Below, one piece after another: positions 32,133-44,318 of a stretch of DNA of 47,678 bases (the stretch's first letter is position 1; each line of letters begins with the position of its first letter). Position numbers and translations under genes: made by a program. The notes beneath the pieces are model-generated. The model made no database searches, was not told the origin of the DNA, and saw only the letters and a program-made list of their open reading frames with translations. The DNA is from Candidatus Enterousia scatequi (lineage in GTDB: Bacteria; Pseudomonadota; Alphaproteobacteria; Rs-D84), in the NCBI GenBank assembly GCA_018064405.1, contig JAGHVG010000011.1:1-47678 (forward strand). Reading direction: 5' to 3'.

Positions 32133-32807
32133 TTAGCGGGCAGGGCTAATACGAATTTCAACCCTGCGATTCGTTAAACGACCAATATCATCTTGTGCTG
32201 CGATGGGTCGTGATGCCCCACGTCCGACAATAAACATCCGTGCGGGTAATATATCATGTTGCGCCAGGTAAACCCCAACGCGCTGCGCCATATCCATAGA
32301 TAATGTATTCGCCGCAGCAGAATTACGCATGGCGTCTGTATATCCAGCAATTTCAATGAATGTTGCGTTGTATTTTTTCAATATTGCAGATATTGTTTTT
32401 AGTGTGTCATCACCTGTTTCAGATATGTCGGGTGCATTCAGTTCCATAATGGCATCGCGTACCAAAATAACCACAACATCAGATCCGGCGCGTTGAACTG
32501 ATATTCCGGGCTTTCGCAAGGCGTCATACAACTCATATTCCAACTTTGACATATATGCGACGTTTATTGCGTTATCACTAAGTGGTTGGTTTTTGCCAAA
32601 ATCTGATGTGACAGATTTGATAATATTATCATCAATTACCTGGCCACCAGCACCGACATATACAGGTCGTTTAGCCATGCGGGATACTTCGTTCATGTCT
32701 GTAAAAGATGCCCCACGCAGATATGTTCCCCATGCTTCATGTGCAGGGCTGTGATATTCGGCACATCCGCATAATAAAATTGGCAAAATAATGTATCTAA
32801 ATTTCAT
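32133..32807 (-). CDS. OmpA-C domain lipoprotein (YiaD-like)
   Basis: Lipobox LCGC, IEIAGYTD, NTLSMDMAQRV, GRGASRPIA, NRRVEIRI. Confidence 0.88.
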   Translation of the reverse strand: MKFRYIILPILLCGCAEYHSPAHEAWGTYLRGASFTDMNEVSRMAKRPVYVGAGGQVIDDNIIKSVTSDFGKNQPLSDNAINVAYMSKLEYELYDALRKPGISVQRAGSDVVVILVRDAIMELNAPDISETGDDTLKTISAILKKYNATFIEIAGYTDAMRNSAAANTLSMDMAQRVGVYLAQHDILPARMFIVGRGASRPIAAQDDIGRLTNRRVEIRISPAR

Positions 32808-33265
32808 TATTCAACAATAAATGATATTTGGTTCGTATCTGATGAAAAACAATGTTGTATAATTTCTGTGTCAAAACCATTAATTACCACAGATTTTGCC
32901 CATGTAAGCACGGTGTTGGCAAAATATGCACATTCACTATTTGTAAGACCGTTTAGATTTATAGAAAATGTTTTGCCATCTATGCTGGGACTAATTGACC
33001 AGTTGTCATCACCCAATGGGGCCTTGTCAGATTGCAGGGCGCCCGCCTTTATCAAATAATCAATAGATACACCATCGTACGTTTCGTGTTGCCCAAGCAG
33101 GATTTTTGTATCGTTTGCGATATCCTGCATTTTATTAGCCGCAATAACGCGAATTTGGTTTGAACGAACTGATTGGTATGTTGCAATAACGCCCGCAGTC
33201 ATTGCCAAACCAATGGCCAACACACCAACAACTTCAATCAATGAACGCCCAGATTCTGTTTTCAT
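32807..33265 (-). CDS. Type IV pilin, PilS-like major pilin candidate
   Basis: Class III signal MKTESG|RSLIEVVGVLAIG with E5, YDGVS..LIKAG, FSINLNGLTNSEC, C-terminal Cys pair. Confidence 0.8.
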   Translation of the reverse strand: MKTESGRSLIEVVGVLAIGLAMTAGVIATYQSVRSNQIRVIAANKMQDIANDTKILLGQHETYDGVSIDYLIKAGALQSDKAPLGDDNWSISPSIDGKTFSINLNGLTNSECAYFANTVLTWAKSVVINGFDTEIIQHCFSSDTNQISFIVE

Positions 33266-33280
33266 ATTTAATCCTTTGTT

Positions 33281-34807
33281 TTATTTTGACACATCAACAA
33301 CTTCTGCATCTGTGAACAGGTTCATTGCGCTAGCCACCAAGGGGTCTGCTTCCAGTTCTTGCTGTGTTTTTTCTGTTTGTGTTTTGACATGGCAAGATTC
33401 CGTTGCGGCATTCAATTTCCATGTTTTTCCAGTGTATTTTTCCAACCATGCAGATAGTTTGTGTGGAAAATCAGCATTGCCACCACGATCAAAATACGTT
33501 ATTTTGCCATCAGTAATTTCACATATTTCTATATTGGCCATATAATAAGCATATAAAATTATTTCTTTAGCTGCCTGCATAGCGGCACCTAATTCATCAA
33601 TGGTGCTTATTTTTTTTGTAGTGCTTTGTGTGATTGGTGTTGGCTTTGCTGGCTGTGATGCGACCCCACCAGATTTTAAAATTTCCTGAACAGATGGTAA
33701 ATCGGCAATATGCATCATACGCACAATTAGCATGTCAAAGCATTGTTTTTGATTTCCTGCGGCCTGCATTTCAGGCATAGAAGCGACCATGACCTGCCAC
33801 AAACGCGACAAAGTATTCAATGTTACATGTGAATCCATCTGGATTATTTTTTCGCGTTGTTCCGCGGTATATGGGGAATTACCGGCATCGCCAATAGACA
33901 GGGCAGGGTGCATACGTGTTGCCCAATGTGTTAATTCCATTATGTCGCCCAACAACATTGTCAGGTCGGCACCGTTTGTATAAATTTGATCAGCCATAGC
34001 AAGGGCGGCACCCGTGTCCCCAGAAAGTATTGTTTTCATAAACCCAACAACAACCCCACGATCAGCACGTTTTAGCATATCCAGAACCGCCTGTTCATCA
34101 ACGTGACCACCTGTTTGTGCAATTGCTTGATCTAATAAAGATAACCCATCACGAACAGACCCATCGGCCGCACGTGCAATCATTTCGTTTGCACTGTCCG
34201 ATAATTCTATTTTTTCCTGTGTTGCAATCCAGGCAAAATGTTTTTTTAATACTTCAACAGGAACACGTGCCAAATCAAATCGTTGGCAGCGCGATAATAT
34301 TGTCACAGGAACCTTGCGAATTTCAGTTGTTGCCAATATAAAAATAACGTGTGCAGGGGGTTCTTCCAGTGTTTTTAACAGTGCATTAAACGCAGCGGTG
34401 GATAACATGTGGACTTCGTCAATAATATAAACCTTATAACGACCGTTGGTTGGACGATACTGTGATGCGTCCAGAATGTCGCGTATATTATCAACACCTG
34501 TATGTGATGCAGCGTCAATTTCAATAACATCAATGTGTTGTCCTGCGGCAATCGCACGACAATTTTCACAAACACCACATGGGGTTGCCGTTGGGCCATC
34601 AGACGACAAACAATTTAATGCCTTGGCTAAAATACGTGCAGTGCTGGTTTTCCCAGTTCCGCGAATTCCTGTAAAAACATAGGCGTGGGCAATACGTCCA
34701 GTTTTAATTGCAGTTGTTAATGTTTTTACCAAAACATCCTGTCCAATTAAAGTTGTAAAATCTTGACTGCGGTATTTTCTTGCCAGAACAGTATAGTCAT
34801 TATCCAT
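33281..34807 (-). CDS. dnaX: DNA polymerase III subunit tau/gamma
   Basis: VLARKYR, GIRGTGKTS, zinc module, IIDEVHMLS, LLKTLEEPP, TILSRCQRF. Confidence 0.98.
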   Translation of the reverse strand: MDNDYTVLARKYRSQDFTTLIGQDVLVKTLTTAIKTGRIAHAYVFTGIRGTGKTSTARILAKALNCLSSDGPTATPCGVCENCRAIAAGQHIDVIEIDAASHTGVDNIRDILDASQYRPTNGRYKVYIIDEVHMLSTAAFNALLKTLEEPPAHVIFILATTEIRKVPVTILSRCQRFDLARVPVEVLKKHFAWIATQEKIELSDSANEMIARAADGSVRDGLSLLDQAIAQTGGHVDEQAVLDMLKRADRGVVVGFMKTILSGDTGAALAMADQIYTNGADLTMLLGDIMELTHWATRMHPALSIGDAGNSPYTAEQREKIIQMDSHVTLNTLSRLWQVMVASMPEMQAAGNQKQCFDMLIVRMMHIADLPSVQEILKSGGVASQPAKPTPITQSTTKKISTIDELGAAMQAAKEIILYAYYMANIEICEITDGKITYFDRGGNADFPHKLSAWLEKYTGKTWKLNAATESCHVKTQTEKTQQELEADPLVASAMNLFTDAEVVDVSK

Positions 34808-34886
34808 TGATTCTTCCTTTTGCCATCAGCATAGCAAAGTAATGTGAAATTTCAATAAAAAAGCGCACCAGACGATGCGCTAAAAT

Positions 34887-35204
34887 TTACTTTAAATTCT
34901 GAATAAAATCAGGGAACCCTAGGTCTTCTTCTTCGTTGTTATCACCGGGTTCGGATGCATCAGGTGCATCTGGAATAATATCTTCGGCTGGCGTTTTATC
35001 CTTAGGGTCGCGTGTTGAATCAATCTTGCTTTGTTCTTCGTTGACAATACGGCAATAATGCTCTGCGGCTTGCAGCAAGCGTTCACGTTCAACTTCATCA
35101 TTTGTCTGACGTGCCATGTCAATATATTGTTTTCGTTTTTGGCGCCATTTGTGACACCGTTGTATCATCATACCTACGTTGGATGTTTGTTTTTTTGTTG
35201 CCAT
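34887..35204 (-). CDS. DUF4167-like alphaproteobacterial protein
   Basis: YIDMAR...ERLLQAAEHYCRI resembles the DUF4167 motif; acidic tail ending FPDFI. Confidence 0.65.
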   Translation of the reverse strand: MATKKQTSNVGMMIQRCHKWRQKRKQYIDMARQTNDEVERERLLQAAEHYCRIVNEEQSKIDSTRDPKDKTPAEDIIPDAPDASEPGDNNEEEDLGFPDFIQNLK

Positions 35205-35300
35205 AATATTTTCTTTTAATTTTAATTTGAAGGAAATCATGCGTTGTGCAAACTATTAACCTTTGCCAACGCTTTCAATTCTAGAATATATCAAAACCAT

Positions 35301-35329
35301 TTGCAATATTTTTTTTCAATTGCTAATCT
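35301..35329 (+). promoter_or_regulatory. Putative promoter of the PilV-like operon
   Basis: TTGCAA-N17-TAATCT with TG extension, followed by a G7 RBS before TTG 35350. Confidence 0.55.
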
Positions 35330-35349
35330 TTTGTACGTAGGGGGGGATT

Positions 35350-36711
35350 TTGCATAAACAAAGTGGTAATTTTTTATTACAAGCATTGTTGGCATTAACG
35401 GTAATGTTTGCGTTTATCCCTATGGTTGTTGGGCGCATATCATCGCGTGATTTGGATGCCAAGATGTATGCCACAACCAACCAGATAGAAATATTTCAAA
35501 CAGTTGCACGTATATATGTTCGTGAAAATGCGGATGGGTTATCGTATGGTCAGACAATTTTGTCGGGTAATGCGTTGATTGATGCTCTTGAACCTTATGG
35601 GTTGCCGATTGGTTTTAGGTCGCGTACAGCATTGGATCAGGATGTTCGGGTGATTGTTGATAAATCACCAACGGATATAATCGCAGGTATAGAAATTATT
35701 GGTGGTAAAACGTCTGAACTAGATAATGCTGAATTGGCTAGGCGTATTGGTTTTTATGCAACAACTATTGATAATGGCGTATATGTTGGTGTGGTTTTAT
35801 CAGATTCGTATTCTGATGTGGTTCGTCGTAATGAAACAAATCTAACGAATAGTCGTTTCTTGAATGATTTAGATATGGGTGATAATTCGTTGTCTGGTGC
35901 GGTCAGTGTTTCGGGACATAACGGGGTTTTTGAAACGGGTCAGTTTGATAACATCAGTATTTCTGGAATTGAAACAGACCGAAAAATAAAAAATACAATT
36001 AAAACAATAATTACAGATAAAACTGTTTTTCAATCCAGGACGGGTGAAACGGCACTAACTTTGACACGTGGAACGTTGTCGGCAAAAAATGTAACAACAC
36101 GAACTATTGCTGAATATGGCGATACAGGCAATTTAACCGCCAGGGTTGCTGGGGTATATGATTTTTCTATGACTGCGGGGCGGACAGGATTTACTGGACC
36201 ACTAGATTGGTCTGTGCACGGCAGTTTGATATCAGATCGTATAAATTTTTCAGTTGAACGTTTAGACATAAGTTCATATTTAAATGCGGCAAGTGGTCAA
36301 GATGTTTATATTGATTCTTCGTCATCAGAATTAACATATTCGTCAAACAGCGGTATTGATACTGGAACAATATTTGCATCAAATATTACGTTGCGAGATC
36401 AGACGTCTGGGGGAATAAATCTGGGGGCGTCGGGTGGAATAATTGTTGATGTCCGCCCTGCGGGAACATCTGTGTTGCCGGATGTTTATATTGAATCAAT
36501 CAATAATGATGATATTGAAATTCTTGCGGATCCTGCTGGTGCTGATGCACAAACAGAAACGTGCAAATCTATAATTTCAGATTTGGGAAAAACATATAAT
36601 TCACATTCACTGGCACAAAAAATTATATGCGAATATGTTTTTTGGCAACGCCTGGAAAAACGTATAGATATAAAACAATGTATGTTAAGTGGTGGAAATG
36701 GTTGTATGTAA
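35350..36711 (+). CDS. Minor pilin/adhesin, shufflon PilV N-terminal-like (paralog 1)
   Basis: MHKQSG|NFLLQALLAL, ELARRIG, RFLNDLDMGDN, beta-rich stalk, C-terminal Cys residues. Confidence 0.65.
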   Translation: MHKQSGNFLLQALLALTVMFAFIPMVVGRISSRDLDAKMYATTNQIEIFQTVARIYVRENADGLSYGQTILSGNALIDALEPYGLPIGFRSRTALDQDVRVIVDKSPTDIIAGIEIIGGKTSELDNAELARRIGFYATTIDNGVYVGVVLSDSYSDVVRRNETNLTNSRFLNDLDMGDNSLSGAVSVSGHNGVFETGQFDNISISGIETDRKIKNTIKTIITDKTVFQSRTGETALTLTRGTLSAKNVTTRTIAEYGDTGNLTARVAGVYDFSMTAGRTGFTGPLDWSVHGSLISDRINFSVERLDISSYLNAASGQDVYIDSSSSELTYSSNSGIDTGTIFASNITLRDQTSGGINLGASGGIIVDVRPAGTSVLPDVYIESINNDDIEILADPAGADAQTETCKSIISDLGKTYNSHSLAQKIICEYVFWQRLEKRIDIKQCMLSGGNGCM

Positions 36712-37906
36712 AATAAAATCTTTTAAAGATGATTTGTGTGGCGCCAGTATAATAGAGGTCGTGCTGGCGATGGCTATTGTTGGCCTGGCAACACCGTTTA
36801 TATATAACCAGATTGCGCGTGTTAATCAAGAACTACGCTATGTGTCCGCAGCGAATAAAATCGTATCTGTGCGTAATGGTGTTCTGAATTTAATTAGAAT
36901 AAATCAGGGGGATTGGCCTGATGTTGCACAAATTGAATTAACAGACGAAGAGTTGGGGTCAATATCGTCAAACGTATCATCTGGGTTTATAGATAAATAT
37001 GCTGTGTCTGGCGCAACGGTTACAGATGCATATTTAGCTTTTGATATGGCAGACAATGTCTTGGAAGCAAATAAAATTGCAGAAAAAATAGGTTATGATG
37101 CAGCGGTGGTTGGTCCTGATGGCATAGCGCATGGCCAGGATTGGGCGGTTGGTGCACCTAATTTTATTGAAGGTCAAATCATATATAAAATATCACGTGA
37201 TTTATCGGGTCAGGATAGATCTAAATATTTACATCGTGGGTCGTCTGGGGATGAACATTTAAATCAGATGCAACGTGATTTGGATATGGGGGGTAATGAA
37301 ATTTCAGATGTGGGCAGTGTTATTGCTAATTCTGCAAAAATACAGAATACAAATGTGACATTTGTTGATATAGAAGATTTATATTCTAATTCGGTATACT
37401 TTTCATCGGGCGCAAATATGGATGGTGCAAATGTTAATATCAATTCGTTGCGCGTCACAGGTGATACGACTGGGTTTAAAAATATTGTTGCAGATACATT
37501 TAATAATAAGGGTCACACAACGACGGGTCGTATAATAACAGACAAGGCAACGATTAATAATAAAATAGATGTGTCAAAAGATTTTGTGTTAAAATCTGAC
37601 AGTGTTCGCACTATTAGTGGTTTTACAGTGATGTCTGCAAATTCTGCGTTTGTTCCGTTTGTTTCAACAGACGAGATGATTTTTTATAATAATTACGGTT
37701 TAACGGTCACAGGTGAATTGTTGTTGTCCAGTAATGCGCCATTAAGGATTGGAAATTGGTCGTTCCCATCAAATAATTTACCAACGTTTCGTCAGTTTAC
37801 ATTAAGTCGTGCAAATATCAATCCTGCACCAACGTCACGTGAGTTTCCTGCGATGTATAACAGTGCATGGCAAACAATCAGCCCAGAGGATCAAGTAATT
37901 CAATGA
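36698..37906 (+). CDS. Minor pilin/adhesin, shufflon PilV N-terminal-like (paralog 2)
   Basis: G|ASIIEVVLAMAIVG, KIAEKIG..AHGQDW, KYLHR...LNQMQRDLDMGGNEISDV. Confidence 0.75.
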   Translation: MVVCKIKSFKDDLCGASIIEVVLAMAIVGLATPFIYNQIARVNQELRYVSAANKIVSVRNGVLNLIRINQGDWPDVAQIELTDEELGSISSNVSSGFIDKYAVSGATVTDAYLAFDMADNVLEANKIAEKIGYDAAVVGPDGIAHGQDWAVGAPNFIEGQIIYKISRDLSGQDRSKYLHRGSSGDEHLNQMQRDLDMGGNEISDVGSVIANSAKIQNTNVTFVDIEDLYSNSVYFSSGANMDGANVNINSLRVTGDTTGFKNIVADTFNNKGHTTTGRIITDKATINNKIDVSKDFVLKSDSVRTISGFTVMSANSAFVPFVSTDEMIFYNNYGLTVTGELLLSSNAPLRIGNWSFPSNNLPTFRQFTLSRANINPAPTSREFPAMYNSAWQTISPEDQVIQ

Positions 37907-39213
37907 TGTGTTGTGATAACTTTTTTTCGGATAATAAATCGCATGGCGGAATTTTGGCCGAATTGTTATTGAGTGTTGCGCTGGCAATGATGGCGATTCC
38001 GTTCGTATTTAAGTATCAACAGGATGCATTAACGCGTGCTGAAAATATTGAAATAACCAACAGCATGAAGAAAATTCAAACTGCGCTTGAACGGTATATA
38101 TCTATGAATCGTGAAAATCTGCTTAAAACAGTTGGTAAAAATATTACACGTTTGGAAATGTCTGATTTGGAACCTTACGGTGTAGATGCAGGTGTCATAG
38201 AAGACGAGCAGGATAAATATCAATTAAGAATCTTGAAATCATTGGATTCTAATGGCCAGGCAACATTGCAAGGCATAGTTGTTTATTCTGATTCAGATAT
38301 AACACCGCTGCGTACACGCCAGTTGGTTTCAATGGATCATAGTATGGGGTTTGTGGACGGGACGCGTGCGTATGGAGCATATGGTGTGTGGCGTACAGAC
38401 ACGGTTGATTTGGGAATTTCTGGTACAGATGGTATTATTCAAACAACCCCAGTAAAACGTGATAATGCATTATATTTATGGCGAATTCCATCCTCAGATG
38501 CCCAGGATGCAACAATGTTATCATCACTCAGTTTGGGTGAACACGATTTAGTGAACGTAAAGTTTTTGGATGTATCTTCATTGTATTTGGATGAAAATTT
38601 AACTGTTGGAACGGCTGCGGCTAACCAAACGGTTTTTGAAAATCGTACAAACATAGATACTTCTTATACAACAGATTTAGCAACTGTTTTTGGAACAATG
38701 TCATCTGATTCGCGTGGAATGAATGTCAGTAATACATTGCTTGTTAATGATATTGCTAAATTTTCCAGTTTTACTACGGATGATTTATATGTTTCTAATT
38801 TAACGTTATCTGGTTTTTCACTTAATTCAACGAACGAAATCGCAACCATCAGAATCAGTGACCGATTGGATATGACATACGGCCGTATAAACGCATTGCA
38901 TGTGACGGTTGGGTTTGCTGGTTCTATAACCCCACGTTTGGTTGTCAGAAATAAAATTCAAGATTCAGCTGATCCGAACTATTATTGGGATGCCACTGCG
39001 TCGGTTGCTAATTTTGTAGATTTATCAATTCCTGGTCTGAACGATATGGCGACCAAGGTCGTATCAAGTGAACGTGATACTGCGACATTTGCTGGGAAAA
39101 CATTTTCAGCGATTACGACAAACAAAAATTCAACTGTTGGGGATTTTCTGTCTGGTCTGGCAGAAATTGAATCGCGCGTTCGTGCAAAATATAACATGTT
39201 GAATTTAGAATAA
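37903..39213 (+). CDS. Minor pilin/adhesin, shufflon PilV N-terminal-like (paralog 3)
   Basis: ATGA overlap with paralog 2. G|GILAELLLSVAL, ALERYISMN, GFVDGTRAYGAYGVW, YLWR...MLSSLSLGEHDLVNV. Confidence 0.75.
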   Translation: MMCCDNFFSDNKSHGGILAELLLSVALAMMAIPFVFKYQQDALTRAENIEITNSMKKIQTALERYISMNRENLLKTVGKNITRLEMSDLEPYGVDAGVIEDEQDKYQLRILKSLDSNGQATLQGIVVYSDSDITPLRTRQLVSMDHSMGFVDGTRAYGAYGVWRTDTVDLGISGTDGIIQTTPVKRDNALYLWRIPSSDAQDATMLSSLSLGEHDLVNVKFLDVSSLYLDENLTVGTAAANQTVFENRTNIDTSYTTDLATVFGTMSSDSRGMNVSNTLLVNDIAKFSSFTTDDLYVSNLTLSGFSLNSTNEIATIRISDRLDMTYGRINALHVTVGFAGSITPRLVVRNKIQDSADPNYYWDATASVANFVDLSIPGLNDMATKVVSSERDTATFAGKTFSAITTNKNSTVGDFLSGLAEIESRVRAKYNMLNLE

Positions 39214-39233
39214 TTTGTGATATAGGTAATAAT

Positions 39234-39743
39234 ATGAAAATAAAATGTGATTTTTGTAAAACAGAATATTCCGTTGATCGGATTCCGTCAACCCCAGTTC
39301 GTTGTGCAATATGCGGTCATTGTTGGGTTGCCCAAACCCCATCACGCAGAAACAATTTTTTTGTGTTTGTTGCTGCGTTGTGTGCGTTATTGTCTGCAAT
39401 TATATTTACGGTTGTTGTTATTACGCATTATAATACGACCCATCGGAACCTGAATCCGTTAATTGCTACAATAACGGCTAGCGAGATTGTCGCCGACAAT
39501 TCGGGTGTTTCGCATTTCAAGGTTCATGGGACCGTTCGTAACCAATCGGCTGAGATATATGGTGTTCCTGATTTACAGATTGTTTCATATGATGCAGACG
39601 GGAATGTTTTATATAGGCAACGCTTTGCACCATCTGGCACATTGATAGAAGGGGGGGCGTTGATTAACTTTACGCACACATTATCTGATCCGTCTGCGGG
39701 TGTGAAAAAAATATCGGCTGAATTGATAGGAATTGAAAAATGA
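39234..39743 (+). CDS. Zinc-ribbon (MJ0042-type) membrane protein with DUF3426-like domain
   Basis: CDFC...CAIC, one TM helix, VHGTVRN..VPDL Ig-like domain. Confidence 0.8.
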   Translation: MKIKCDFCKTEYSVDRIPSTPVRCAICGHCWVAQTPSRRNNFFVFVAALCALLSAIIFTVVVITHYNTTHRNLNPLIATITASEIVADNSGVSHFKVHGTVRNQSAEIYGVPDLQIVSYDADGNVLYRQRFAPSGTLIEGGALINFTHTLSDPSAGVKKISAELIGIEK

Positions 39744-40201
39744 AGAAATTATTTGCTTTTTGTTTGTGCGCATTGTTGACATCCATCGCCTTTGGTGCAG
39801 GCGAAATTATGCCTAGGGTCAGCGTTTTTTCAACTACGGTTGATTGGGCGGCGGTAACAGGATTGTCACTGCATCAATATAGCGGACATTTTGTTGGTAA
39901 AAACAAGGTCTTGGTAAAGGATGGTTTGGTATTATATTACCTGGATTCGTTCCCATGCTATGGTGAATCGGACAGTGTTCGTGTTTGGATTGATAAAAAT
40001 GGTAAAACAGACAATCATTTGCGTATTGTCTGTGTTCATGAGCCAACAGAAATAAAATTTGCGTGGCGTAATGCCGAACGTAACGCGACCCAGAATACGA
40101 CAACGGGTTTGCTGGAATGCCCGGTCAATACGGTTGGTCGTGAATTCAATATTGATTTATCTGAATGCAAGGTTGATAAAGATTGGCAAGAGTATAAGTA
40201 A
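39740..40201 (+). CDS. Hypothetical exported protein
   Basis: ATGA overlap, signal peptide, four Cys in the mature part. Confidence 0.7.
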   Translation: MKKLFAFCLCALLTSIAFGAGEIMPRVSVFSTTVDWAAVTGLSLHQYSGHFVGKNKVLVKDGLVLYYLDSFPCYGESDSVRVWIDKNGKTDNHLRIVCVHEPTEIKFAWRNAERNATQNTTTGLLECPVNTVGREFNIDLSECKVDKDWQEYK

Positions 40202-41154
40202 TGCAACGTGAATTTGTTGTGTCGGCGGATGATGCAGGCACACGTCTTGATAGGTTTTTATCGGCAATGATGCCTGAATTTTCGCGCAGCGAGGTTCAGC
40301 GTTTTACTGTGACCCGTAATGGTAATCCTGTAAAGTTTTCAGAACGTATTCATGAATCTGATAAATATGTTGTTGTAATTCCGGACACTAATCCAGCATC
40401 TGTTGCCTATGATAATGTATCCCAGGATTTTGACCTGGATATTTTATATGAAGACGATGATATTATCGTTATCAACAAACCGCGTGGTGTGGTTATGTAT
40501 CCATCGGCGGGGAACAAGACCGGAACATTGGTTCAAAATATTTTATCGCACACTCATTTGTCTGCCTTGGGTGGGGATGTTCGTCCGGGTGTTGTTCATC
40601 GTTTGGACAAGGACACCAGTGGTGTAATGGTCTTTGCAAAATCAGATGCGGCATTTCGTGGTTTGGTTAAAACATTTATGTCGCATGATTTGACGCGAAA
40701 ATATATTGCTTTTGCGTGGGGGGTGCCTAATTGGGAATCTGCAACGATAACGGGCAATATTGCGCGTTCGTCACGCAATCGGCAAAAAATGACAATGGTT
40801 AAAACTGGGGGCAAGCCCGCCACGACCGAGGTTGCAGTTGTAAATTCCTGGACGCGTGCTGGTGTTACAGAATTTAGATGCAATTTATTAACAGGGCGCA
40901 CGCATCAGATACGTGTTCATTTGTCTGTGCATGGTTTTCCTGTTTTATGTGATGGTGTTTACGGACGTGGTGCAACGCGTTTGGGGTCGGTTAAGAATCC
41001 AGATTTGTTGGATTTCTTGAAAACGCATAATGGCCAGATGTTGCATGCCGAAGTGTTGGAGTTTGCGCATCCTGTGACAGGTAACCCAATGCGTTTCAAG
41101 GCGCATTTGCCATCTGATATGCAAGAGTTAAAATACATTTTAGATTGTGATTAA
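40201..41154 (+). CDS. rluD: RluA-family pseudouridine synthase (RluD-like)
   Basis: RLDRFL S4 domain, INKPRG, RPGVVHRLDKDTSG, TGRTHQIRVH. Confidence 0.92.
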   Translation: MQREFVVSADDAGTRLDRFLSAMMPEFSRSEVQRFTVTRNGNPVKFSERIHESDKYVVVIPDTNPASVAYDNVSQDFDLDILYEDDDIIVINKPRGVVMYPSAGNKTGTLVQNILSHTHLSALGGDVRPGVVHRLDKDTSGVMVFAKSDAAFRGLVKTFMSHDLTRKYIAFAWGVPNWESATITGNIARSSRNRQKMTMVKTGGKPATTEVAVVNSWTRAGVTEFRCNLLTGRTHQIRVHLSVHGFPVLCDGVYGRGATRLGSVKNPDLLDFLKTHNGQMLHAEVLEFAHPVTGNPMRFKAHLPSDMQELKYILDCD

Positions 41155-41246
41155 TTTTTGTTTTTTTGGGTTGGTGAAACCCATTTTTTGTGTTGTTTAA
41201 ATTTCCATTTATGATATAATAAATTAAAAAAGATAAGGGGAAAGAG

Positions 41247-44200
41247 ATGGCTTTTCTAAAAAATACAGTTAGTTTGTTGGCGGTTTTTTGCGTTATTCCA
41301 GGGGCGTTTGGTGCGACATCGCGTGTTGGTGTTGTGACAACAAATGCGGCGCGTATGCCAACGCTTAGTGCATATTTGACAAATGTTGCTGCAACAACTA
41401 CGACAACAACTGCATCGTCACTGCTTGCAAATGCGGAATGCATTGACGCGTACACGTCTTGTTTAAAGTCAGAGGATGTATGTGGTCTGGACATGGAAGA
41501 ATGCACAACAAACGTTTTATTCCATGGGAAAATGCCATTATGTTTCAGCACGTTATATCAATGTCAATCTGCAGGTATTTCCAGTTTGTTTGGTACATCC
41601 AGTATTGATGCGTTGTCAAACGTTTCAACCAAGAATGCCGCAGGTGAGGTGACACGTTATACGTACCCAACTGATGGTAGTGTTTTGGGTCAAATGATAA
41701 TCGGTGCGAAAATTTCTAATTCTTTCAAAGATACCGGAACGTGTGTAAAAAAATATAAATCATGTTTGAACAAGGATACGGTCTGTGGCGAAGATTTTGA
41801 ATTATGCACAGATGCAAATTCGTTCAAGAAACAGGCGGTATATTGCGATGGCACATTGGCGCGTTGCGATGCGGCATCGGTTGCACAGTTGTTTGGTAAA
41901 AATCAAACAACGCGTCCGGTTGGGTCATATGGAACAGGTACTGTGGCACAATGGGTTGCTGATGGTGCTGATTTGGCGGCGGCAAACGCTGTAAATACCT
42001 GTTACAAGGTTATTGATAACTGTTTCTTGTCTGCGTGTAATGCAAATCCATATCGTTGTGTTGAAGGTACAGATTTGTCCATTATATCAAATGCTGATTT
42101 GATTGGTGCTGGGGCGGATAATGATTTGTCAACATCATCTAATTCAATTGAATATGTTTATGGTGATAATGGGGTTATGGTTGGAACCAAGAGTACGGCT
42201 GCCAACATAAAAAAATATTTCAAAACGGCATGTATGGATACTATTGGTGCAAACAAGTATTGCTATATGACATTTATGGAAAAAACACCGTCTCAAAAGG
42301 CGTTGGCTGACGTTGACGAACAGGAAGAAGTATTTAGCGAGGCATATAGTAATCGTAAAACTTATATCAATTCTAAATTGAATGATATGGTGACTAAGTT
42401 TGATAAAAAGGCCAAGGATGCGTGCAAGGATACAATTACAAATTGTGCGATGCGTACATGTGGTGGCGGTATTGGTGCGGCATGTTATACCCAGGTTTTG
42501 GGTTCTTCGGGTACCAAATCTATCAATTTAAACAATGCAACATATAAGCCATATGATGCGATTTCAACAGGGTGCAGTGCGGTTGTAAATAACGATCCGT
42601 ATTGTAAGTATGCTTTTGCATCTGTGACCGATGGTGGATATTCATATAATTATACTGAAAATGGCGCGTTTGCGTATTTGTTCCCAAATGATGAAACATC
42701 TGACCCAATTGGTGCGGTTGCTGAATTGAATTCGTTGTTGGCGACATCTTATAATGATGCGGCGATTGCGGCAAAGAAAAAACAATGTCAATCGGTTGCG
42801 ACATCGTGTGTAAAGTCATTGTGTGGGACGGACTATGTGAATTGCTATCGTAACAGAACAGATATTTATTCAACACTGACCAACAGTGGTGAAACGATTT
42901 ATGATATGAGCATGAATAAGGTTGGTGGTGTTCTGGATTACACAATTGTTTTGGGGTTGTGTCTGGATACGGTTAAAAATTCATCGTCTTGCACAGAACA
43001 TTTGGCAATCGCAACCCAGGATTTTGCAACCCAGGATGCCAAAAATTCATGGAATACAGGTTCTAATGTTGGTGGAAATTGGTTGTCATCTGGGAACGCA
43101 TCTGCGATTTCCGTTAATGAAAATGATAACAATGTTGTAATTGGTTGCACATCTCTTTCAAGTGATGCCTGCATAGCCAAGGGGGTTGAGGCATGTGATA
43201 CCGTTGATGACGAAGGGTGTTTGTTTGATCAACCACAAACAATTTCACGTACAACATACAATGAATCCAAGGGTGCTGAGTCATTATTTGCTGAATTGTT
43301 GTATGATATTGAAAAAGAAGCCCAGGCAAAATATAACGCTAAATTGACCAAACAACAGAATATGTGTATGTCTGGCAATACTGGTGGTATTATGGGGGCG
43401 TCTGATACAGGTTCAACATATATGTGGGTGAAATTGAAATCTAACAAGGTTCCATCTGCGTATGCAACCCAAGGGTTAAAGACGAATCAATTCGTGGCGA
43501 GTAATGATTTGTATGGTTCGTTCTGTCGTATCAAGGTGACGTTGCAATCTGATGATAAATATATCCAGGATGCAATATCCAAGGGAAATGGTTGGTCAAC
43601 GGCATATTTTGCTGCGGGTGACGCATTCACGTGCGGTTCGTGGATTAAACAGACCGACTTGGAAAAAATCACAGACGATGTTCGTGAGAATGCAATATCT
43701 GAGGGAACCAAGACATCACAGAATTGGACCGCGGGTATGTTAACAGCACTTGGCACATTGGCAGGTGGTGCAGGTGGTTTTGCAATCGCAAACAAATTGC
43801 AACAGGATGGCGGAATATCCGGATTGTTGGGTAATACAAAACTAAGCAACACAGGTGACAAGGTCGGTGCTGCTAAACTATGCCAAACCGAAACATATGA
43901 TATTAATAGTAAGTGTGCTGGACGAAACTGTGAAGATCTGAAAAGCAACTTAATGTTACATGCTCAGCAAGCAGGGGTTGCTTTTAATCGCGCTAATTTG
44001 TATAGCTTGAAAGGGGAAGAGGTTGCAGAAGAGGTGGAGAATATTAATAAACAATGCACTGCTGTTATAAACAGCAATAGTAATACCAACCAAACAGTCA
44101 GTGGTAAAAAGAATTGGATTGGTGCGGGTATTGGTGGCGCGGTTGCAGGTGGATTGACGTTTACCACGATTAAGGCAATCCAGGAAACCAAAAACGCCCA

Positions 44201-44318
44201 GGCCGAAGATGCTGCGGTTGCTGAATGGATGGAAAACATTGGTGAAAAAATCAAATGTTATATCGGTTCAGAAGAGATTGGTTCATATGGTGATATAATC
44301 AGCACAGAATTGCAGTAA
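41247..44318 (+). CDS. Large Cys-rich exported protein with repeated six-Cys modules and C-terminal glycine-zipper segments
   Basis: 1023-aa ORF with signal peptide, AGGGG RBS and TGnTATAAT upstream; about 43 Cys by hand count. Confidence 0.85.
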   Translation: MAFLKNTVSLLAVFCVIPGAFGATSRVGVVTTNAARMPTLSAYLTNVAATTTTTTASSLLANAECIDAYTSCLKSEDVCGLDMEECTTNVLFHGKMPLCFSTLYQCQSAGISSLFGTSSIDALSNVSTKNAAGEVTRYTYPTDGSVLGQMIIGAKISNSFKDTGTCVKKYKSCLNKDTVCGEDFELCTDANSFKKQAVYCDGTLARCDAASVAQLFGKNQTTRPVGSYGTGTVAQWVADGADLAAANAVNTCYKVIDNCFLSACNANPYRCVEGTDLSIISNADLIGAGADNDLSTSSNSIEYVYGDNGVMVGTKSTAANIKKYFKTACMDTIGANKYCYMTFMEKTPSQKALADVDEQEEVFSEAYSNRKTYINSKLNDMVTKFDKKAKDACKDTITNCAMRTCGGGIGAACYTQVLGSSGTKSINLNNATYKPYDAISTGCSAVVNNDPYCKYAFASVTDGGYSYNYTENGAFAYLFPNDETSDPIGAVAELNSLLATSYNDAAIAAKKKQCQSVATSCVKSLCGTDYVNCYRNRTDIYSTLTNSGETIYDMSMNKVGGVLDYTIVLGLCLDTVKNSSSCTEHLAIATQDFATQDAKNSWNTGSNVGGNWLSSGNASAISVNENDNNVVIGCTSLSSDACIAKGVEACDTVDDEGCLFDQPQTISRTTYNESKGAESLFAELLYDIEKEAQAKYNAKLTKQQNMCMSGNTGGIMGASDTGSTYMWVKLKSNKVPSAYATQGLKTNQFVASNDLYGSFCRIKVTLQSDDKYIQDAISKGNGWSTAYFAAGDAFTCGSWIKQTDLEKITDDVRENAISEGTKTSQNWTAGMLTALGTLAGGAGGFAIANKLQQDGGISGLLGNTKLSNTGDKVGAAKLCQTETYDINSKCAGRNCEDLKSNLMLHAQQAGVAFNRANLYSLKGEEVAEEVENINKQCTAVINSNSNTNQTVSGKKNWIGAGIGGAVAGGLTFTTIKAIQETKNAQAEDAAVAEWMENIGEKIKCYIGSEEIGSYGDIISTELQ

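Follow-up and report, generated by a model that had tools for sequence, protein, structure and literature searches.

Three ordered PilV-like paralogs in Candidatus Enterousia scatequi, a candidate hetero-oligomeric tip of a type IVb pilus

The window analysed here covers positions 1 to 47,678 of contig JAGHVG010000011.1 of Candidatus Enterousia scatequi, an alphaproteobacterium of the order Rs-D84 whose genome (assembly GCA_018064405.1) amounts to 756 kb at 79% completeness. Between positions 35350 and 39213 it carries three overlapping genes, named A, B and C in this study, whose products are large minor pilins resembling PilV, the shufflon-diversified minor pilin of IncI plasmids, and which may together make up the tip of a pilus. 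Enterousia genomes are smaller than 1 Mbp, and a partner-dependent lifestyle has been proposed for them; in the available text of the same report, type IV pilus genes are mentioned for another lineage and none are noted for Enterousia (PMC12306168).

Three overlapping genes conserved throughout the order

Gene A (35350..36711, forward strand), as defined by its open reading frame (ORF) and translation, encodes 453 amino acids from a TTG start codon preceded by a Shine-Dalgarno-like run, GGGGGGG. Gene B (36698..37906, forward strand) encodes 402 amino acids from the ATG at 36698 in its database form, the mechanically delimited ORF being slightly longer (36689-37906, 405 amino acids, GTG start), and gene C (37903..39213, forward strand) encodes 436 amino acids from the ATG at 37903, again in the database form, within a mechanical ORF of 448 amino acids (37867-39213). 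The start of B lies inside the end of A, with an overlap of 14 nucleotides, and the start of C overlaps the stop of B in an ATGA; overlapping start and stop codons of this kind are the usual signature of translational coupling. No RNA run appeared among the 20 public sequencing runs listed for this DNA. An earlier note on this DNA, made from the sequence alone, had described three overlapping genes of similar length and architecture, highly diverged from one another and lacking an Rci recombinase, inverted cassettes or sfx-like repeats, and the description holds in each respect. The ORFs, the stop/start overlaps and the prepilin N-termini bear out the first part. As for the shufflon, neither sfx-like repeats nor inverted cassettes were found within 34800-41300, where direct and inverted repeats are all short and at chance level, and no recombinase was found near the triplet, the two clear tyrosine recombinases of the genome being located on contigs C37 and C38.

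All three products have a short polar leader at the N-terminus, with a glycine as its last residue and a hydrophobic helix behind it. The cleavage sites read ...G|NFLLQ in A, ...G|ASIIE in B and ...G|GILAE in C, so that the class III (prepilin) signal consists of G at -1 and E at +5 in B and C, and of G at -1 and Q at +5 in A. The Pfam family N_methyl gives a weak match in 22 of the 32 B-family members. Glutamine at mature position 5 is present in all 32 sequences of the A family, in which G6, N7, F8, Q11 and four cysteines near the C-terminus (C405, C427, C444 and C452) are invariant. Orthologs of A in other families of Rs-D84 retain E5; for this reason Q5 was rejected as a marker of the whole order, and on the sequences compared the loss of E5 is derived within the family of the source organism only.

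The three proteins are hardly similar at the level of single sequences. In a three-way alignment the identity to A is 19% for B and 21% for C, and pairwise BLASTP among them is marginal (E 0.003, 3e-4 and 1e-4, with the A-B alignment out of register), so that family profiles were needed. An alignment of 32 sequences was therefore built for each family and the profiles were compared with hhalign: B and C align with a Prob of 98.0 and an E of 2.1e-13 over 230 columns, A and C with 96.4 and 1.3e-9 over 223 columns, and A and B with 83.7 and 8e-6 over 181 columns. The alignments take in the prepilin N-terminus and the globular domain and extend as far as the linker motif pointed out in the earlier note, and the C-terminal halves do not align with one another in these comparisons. 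Judged by their profiles, A, B and C are paralogs. Within the families, the alignments contain almost no indels, and conservation is even along all three proteins, with no hypervariable receptor-binding end except for the last ~40 residues of B.

The triplet is a very stable feature of Rs-D84. The profile of B matches 193 of the 201 genomes of the order, all of the matching genomes being 0.5-1.3 Mb in size, and 169 of 171 in the source family; database relatives of A number 933. When the best profile-matching ORFs are ordered along the DNA, the arrangement A-B-C is found in 30/30 loci of the same genus and also in a second genus of the source family, and the wider neighbourhood is kept in both. 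Furthermore, among seven genomes from the other five families, six contain three complete tandem PilV-like ORFs of 430-600 amino acids, and in the seventh the third tandem ORF is cut by the contig end. Since three tandem genes are present in all six families examined, the triplication, as read from gene order, predates the radiation of the order and copy number has been fixed since then. The ancient triplication inferred in the earlier note is thereby supported, with three genes in tandem at every complete locus examined in the six families. Many B matches from the same genus were flagged as containing one in-frame TGA or TAA, with the profile match starting near position 11-12; what is flagged is probably the stop codon of gene A, crossed by the match where the two genes overlap, rather than the sign of a broken gene.

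Outside the order, weak matches to the B profile occur in 12 of 298 sampled alphaproteobacterial genomes. The three such loci that were inspected each contain a single PilV-like ORF of 967-1024 amino acids (L077:1196-4099, L078:4809-7883 and L079:5268-8231), with no tandem paralog seen within 9-12 kb. This protein of ~1000 amino acids may correspond to the A-B-C set in an unsplit or untriplicated form. A conserved gene of ~240 amino acids, whose product starts with MYIWV(I/V)LATF, precedes each of the three outgroup ORFs.

Kinship with PilV and predicted folds

The relationship of the triplet with PilV includes the linker motif. In A it lies at 35857..35889 (forward strand; the FLNDLDMGDNS region) and is aligned by hhalign with the motifs of B, of C and of a PilV alignment; in B it spans 37226..37303 (forward strand; YLHR...LNQMQRDLDMGGNEI) and in C 38473..38550 (forward strand; YLWR...DATMLSSLSLGEHDL), both aligned with the PilV motif. 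The motif of B is also the sole stretch matched by the Pfam family of the PilV constant region, Shufflon_N (PF04917), at profile positions 152-225. This match scores 14.3 bits (E 0.028), or 14.7 bits in the genome-wide scan, below the gathering cut-off of 27.5; in the Pfam scan neither A nor C is matched, and B is the only match in its own genome. By the Pfam criterion, therefore, A, B and C are not members of Shufflon_N, all of them being below the gathering threshold, and no other Pfam family exceeds its threshold in any of the three.

Comparisons that reach further than the Pfam profile give a different picture. When B was compared by tblastn with 72,556 plasmids, 235 records were obtained, and 15 of the 15 matches listed fall on annotated pilV genes; they run collinear with B for as much as 89% of its length, with an identity of 22-24% and E-values that are individually non-significant. 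Against one annotated PilV, hhalign gives a Prob of 87.1 for B, 83.6 for C and 10.3 for A, the linker motifs of B and C being aligned with that of PilV. Against an alignment of eight rows, consisting of the annotated PilV and seven matches of the B profile (five above the Shufflon_N cut-off and two below), the values rise to 99.3 for B, 99.6 for C and 97.4 for A; the value of B is partly circular because seven of the rows were drawn from its own profile matches, which applies less to those of C and A. Moreover, an exhaustive HMMER search of 1.84 billion representative proteins with the B profile retrieved 174 clusters at E≤0.001, and among the weaker matches that were scanned 8 of 53 pass the Shufflon_N cut-off. 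The best-matched of these eight, P0466, scores 123 bits to Shufflon_N and is matched by the B profile at E 4.8e-7. In a language-model Atlas, clusters of Shufflon_N account for 22 of the 30 named matches, for C and for A alike. A bactofilin identity, carried by 20% of the members of one Atlas cluster, was considered and rejected, as no Pfam Bactofilin match appeared at E≤1.

Taken together, these comparisons support remote homology of all three proteins to the constant region of the PilV of IncI plasmids, the linker motif included. The similarity to PilV and the PilV linker claimed in the earlier note are thereby found as remote homology in the profile comparisons and in the reach of the B profile to Shufflon_N proteins, whereas membership of the Pfam family, as measured by its own hidden Markov model, is not.

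Models of the single chains were made with AlphaFold2 (AF2). For B, from an alignment of 48 rows, the mean predicted local distance difference test score (pLDDT) is 74.6; a pilin-type N-terminal domain (residues 18-170) is predicted at pLDDT 82-92 and the C-terminal half is beta-rich, at moderate confidence. For A, from 37 rows, the pilin domain (6-150) has a pLDDT of 79-89 and a C-terminal piece (380-446, with a helix at 421-446) is also confident; the stalk between these two confident ends (152-377) reaches only 24-49 in the monomer model. Among 48,161 chains, the best fold match of A is the type IVb pilus of enterotoxigenic Escherichia coli (Z 8.7, root-mean-square deviation 2.7 over 136 aligned residues), followed by TcpA (Z 8.3), PilA1 of Clostridioides difficile (8.2), and TcpB and CofB (7.3 each); each of the five best rows is a type IV pilin or minor pilin. 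A pilin fold is thus supported for A by its fold matches and predicted for B by its model. Whole-model fold searches are dominated by the N-terminal helix and the pilin domain.

Sequence searches of the PDB added little. The profile of A found no match, that of C found only N-terminal helices of geopilin (E 0.05-0.11), and none of the three profiles gave a match to CofB or TcpB. The B profile matched the phage tail fibre protein 9cuy weakly (E 0.0064), a match carried by short repeats and to be taken as a lead only.

A candidate hetero-oligomeric tip and its alternatives

A three-chain model was computed for the post-linker halves only, without the pilin domains (A 158-453, B 168-402 and C 182-436), each chain with its own alignment and C as the scored partner, and was compared with controls in which a chain had been replaced. 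The interface score (ipSAE) of A+B+C was 0.79, 0.80 and 0.75; it was 0.00 and 0.00 when C was replaced, and 0.18 when A was replaced with B and C kept. C therefore loses its confident placement on replacement of A, although B is still present (0.18 vs 0.79). The pass mark of this score is reached by 116 of 157 solved complexes and by 2 of 215 mismatched pairs. The pLDDT of the partner is at least 63. Contacts between C and B span almost the whole post-linker length of C, those between C and A extend only from about A333 to the C-terminal helices, and the contacts of lowest error are in register (A373-376 with C373-376, and B367-369 with C369-371). This one prediction supports the binding and co-assembly of A, B and C, for which indirect support comes from the poor prediction of the A stalk as a monomer, the scarcity of indels, the coupled genes and the fixed copy number.

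These data are accommodated by a reading to which we give a little better than an even chance, namely that A, B and C constitute a hetero-oligomeric tip complex derived from PilV. The three would be paralogs of ancient origin, belonging to the large minor pilins of PilV type in type IVb pili, and would be expressed jointly from a single operon with translational coupling. Once the prepilin peptidase has cleaved them, their beta-rich halves beyond the linker would co-fold into a single hetero-oligomeric complex, most simply with an A:B:C stoichiometry of 1:1:1, and the three pilin-type N-terminal domains would seat it on the end, presumably the tip, of a filament of 150-amino-acid pilin built by a dispersed type IVb machine. 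In this position the complex would prime pilus assembly and could also act as an adhesin, its likely job being attachment to the surface of a partner or host, given a lineage of sub-1 Mb genomes thought to be partner-dependent. E5 is also absent from GspK of type II secretion and PilX of type IVa systems, each of them the tip-most subunit, and the loss of this residue in A fits, by analogy, such a position. A bolder formulation, in which Rs-D84 has swapped the homotrimeric type IVb tip for an obligate heterotrimer of PilV paralogs, with stalks that fold only together and an asymmetric tip that recognises and grips a partner cell, appears rather doubtful to us; if it held, it would provide the first example of a heteromeric PilV-type tip, and with it a means of approaching the partner of this uncultured lineage.

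A number of results weigh against a mixed PilV-derived tip. With regard to kinship, the Shufflon_N cut-off is reached by none of A, B and C, and at E≤1 this family matches one of 32 members of the B family, below threshold, and 0/32 members of each of the C and A families. With regard to folds, Foldseek found no match for the B model at E≤0.001 (best E 0.05; TcpB appears at ranks 19 and 22 with E 0.56-0.71), and the VIA-align search with the same model is dominated by single-helix matches, the best being 3eoi 'PilM' at Z 6.6. As to the three-chain model, its calibration is only rough for chains that have their own alignments and number three, the contacts of different runs agree by as little as 29%, and the pLDDT values of the third run are lower (63 and 56). 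Furthermore, a heterotrimer cannot be told apart from homotrimers of the paralogs by a pass in such a model, because close cousins of the true partner can also pass. The assembly that is predicted is not a simple three-fold fibre: A180-330 is left unplaced, since A touches C only from about residue 333. Of the 1:1:1 heterotrimeric tip fibre proposed in the earlier note, the mixed composition is supported by the contrast between A+B+C and the best control, the stoichiometry and the location at the tip being putative. Finally, the argument from Q5 is valid for the source organism's family only, because orthologs of A elsewhere in the order keep E5.

The most serious alternative, which we nevertheless find unlikely, is that each paralog makes an alternative tip of its own, a homotrimer like those of CofB and TcpB, in a fixed repertoire of three adhesins that replaces the repertoire generated by shufflon inversion. 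The solved type IVb tips, of the toxin-coregulated pilus (TCP) and of CFA/III, are described as homotrimers of a minor pilin in the available text of PMC13533445, and PilV variants of IncI plasmids are reported to confer different recipient specificities (PMC9045228); in addition, the C-terminal halves of A, B and C lack mutual alignment. Nevertheless, adhesin repertoires usually vary in copy number, whereas three ordered genes are present at every complete locus in six families, and the overlapping start and stop codons favour equimolar co-production. Even conservation, with no variable receptor-binding end beyond that of B, argues in the same direction, as do the loss of E5 from A alone in the source family and the dependence of the placement of C on A in the model.

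A second alternative likens the triplet to the GspI/J/K priming complex: A, B and C would associate through their pilin domains only, with independent C-terminal halves, or else B and C would form a pair and A a separate cap. Such an arrangement would share with GspK a subunit without E5, and the modelled B-C interface is indeed far larger than the A-C interface. The chains of EpsI-EpsJ, XcpV-XcpW and GspK-I-J are found in the VIA list of fold matches for A, only at Z 4.3-4.7. In type II secretion and type IVa systems, minor-pilin tips are stated to be heterotrimeric as a rule (PMC13533445, available text). Against this, the members of the triplet are related to each other and to PilV as paralogs and do not represent three distinct GspI/J/K families, and the interface that was scored is located in the post-linker halves, modelled without any pilin domain, which makes this alternative distinctly unlikely. 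The third, that A, B and C cap a non-adhesive filament such as a short secretion pseudopilus or a device for DNA uptake or contact-dependent transfer, has in its favour the reported links of type IVb tips with retraction and TcpF secretion (PMC5207764, PMC9565799) and the many absent biosynthetic pathways (PMC12306168, available text), which make an import or exchange function conceivable, but it is very improbable given that no cargo gene was identified and that the machine markers (a TcpQ domain, a PilO-like protein and a PilS-like pilin) are those of type IVb pili, and it concerns function more than architecture, being compatible with a mixed tip.

With respect to known systems, the tip complex proposed here is closest by sequence to IncI PilV, by architecture to CofB and TcpB, and by logic to the GspIJK and PilVWX tips. 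With the PilV of R64 and TP114 (PF04917), A, B and C have in common the character of a large minor pilin of 400-460 amino acids with a prepilin N-terminus, an N-terminal constant region that is homologous over ~220 residues and closes with the shared linker motif, and a type IVb machine with PilO-, PilQ-, PilR- and PilN-like parts. They differ from it in being three diverged genes instead of one, with no sfx repeats, inverted cassettes or adjacent Rci and with post-linker halves that are conserved rather than switchable; in addition, the system is chromosomal and dispersed, not a plasmid pil operon, and lies below the Pfam threshold. CofB of CFA/III and TcpB of TCP are likewise large minor pilins with an N-terminal pilin domain, to both of which the model of A matches equally well. 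Beta-rich domains hold their trimers together, A, B and C having predicted beta-rich halves after the pilin domain, and priming and capping of the pilus is the role proposed in either case. The difference is that CofB and TcpB are encoded by a single minor pilin gene and form homotrimers (PMC13533445, available text), whereas three paralogs are present here and predicted to co-assemble. The same text indicates that the pilin-pilin contacts of the homotrimeric type IVb tips, built from a single minor pilin, differ from those of heterotrimeric tips elsewhere (PMC13533445). A third resemblance is that with GspK-GspI-GspJ and PilV/W/X (PilI/J/K), in which three side-by-side minor pilins make one tip and one subunit has no E5, as A in the source family. 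Those proteins belong to distinct and much smaller families associated through pilin domains; the triplet comprises mutual paralogs of PilV type whose predicted interface is in the long C-terminal stalks, and this mutual paralogy argues against a one-to-one orthology with GspI/J/K.

A fixed set of three PilV paralogs without a shufflon, predicted to co-fold, is a variant on a known pilus tip. In a search of literature titles and the beginnings of abstracts, with subscription journals outside its coverage, no description of three PilV paralogs or of a heteromeric PilV tip was found, in agreement with the earlier note, to which none was known. If real, a tip assembled from three fixed paralogs of PilV type would stand between the homotrimeric and the heterotrimeric tips: tripling of the gene would have turned a symmetric structure into an asymmetric one, with three surfaces free to specialise. 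The triplet is among the few obvious surface-interaction genes kept throughout this order of small-genome gut bacteria, for which partner dependence has been proposed, and the tip proteins would therefore be natural baits for the partner or its receptor.

The pilus machine and the surrounding genes

The genes for a type IVb machine are found on contigs other than that of the triplet. On contig C11 a PilO-like gene is followed by a gene of 225 amino acids, a T2SSE ATPase and a T2SSF platform protein, while contig C26 carries a TcpQ-domain protein and then a lipoprotein secretin. The Pfam scores are 212.7 bits for T2SSE, 73.5 for T2SSF, 52.3 for Secretin, 65.4 for TcpQ and 49.6 for Peptidase_A24; PAP_PilO (20.2 bits) and PilS (16.3 bits) remain below cut-off. 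T2SSF is present in 61/61 sampled genomes of Rs-D84. These matches support the existence of a chromosomal type IVb pilus machine dispersed over several contigs, the chromosomal location having been suggested in the earlier note. The A24 prepilin peptidase (152 amino acids; contig C4:36384-36842, equivalent to L011:785-1243) is the only one found in the genome. It consists of the peptidase domain alone, without the N-terminal methyltransferase part, and because of this the pilins may not be N-methylated.

Two small pilins could provide the filament. The candidate major pilin (32807..33265, reverse strand; 152 amino acids, ...ESG|RSLIE) matches PilS at E 0.01, below the cut-off, and is encoded on the strand opposite to A, ~2 kb upstream of it, its start abutting the stop region of dnaX; two genera of the source family preserve the synteny of this gene with the triplet. 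A second small pilin (151 amino acids, ...ESG|RSMIE) is located at C26:45957-46412, ~12 kb from the secretin gene. The stop of the first pilin gene shares base 32807 with the start of a gene for an OmpA-family lipoprotein of 224 amino acids, which is followed by an OmpH/Skp-like gene (32133-33265 for the whole, reverse strand), and this pilin-OmpA-OmpH block beside dnaX is syntenic in relatives. The peptidoglycan-binding lipoprotein coupled to the pilin may belong to the pilus machine.

Downstream of C, three mutually overlapping genes occupy 39234-41154 on the forward strand. The first encodes a zinc-ribbon/DUF3426-like membrane protein of 169 amino acids, with matches below cut-off, the second a protein of 153 amino acids with a signal peptide and no assigned family, and the third a pseudouridine synthase of the RluD type. 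The first terminator-like hairpin appears only after the synthase gene, at 41167-41183, the scan for promoters and terminators being otherwise uninformative. The order A-B-C-DUF3426-153 aa-RluD is kept in two genera of the source family. Beyond it, positions 41247-44318 encode a cysteine-rich protein of 1023 amino acids without a Pfam family, having a signal peptide and a hydrophobic stretch rich in glycine and alanine near the C-terminus; it is found next to the cluster in two genera, at 43-51% identity, and may be another surface protein.

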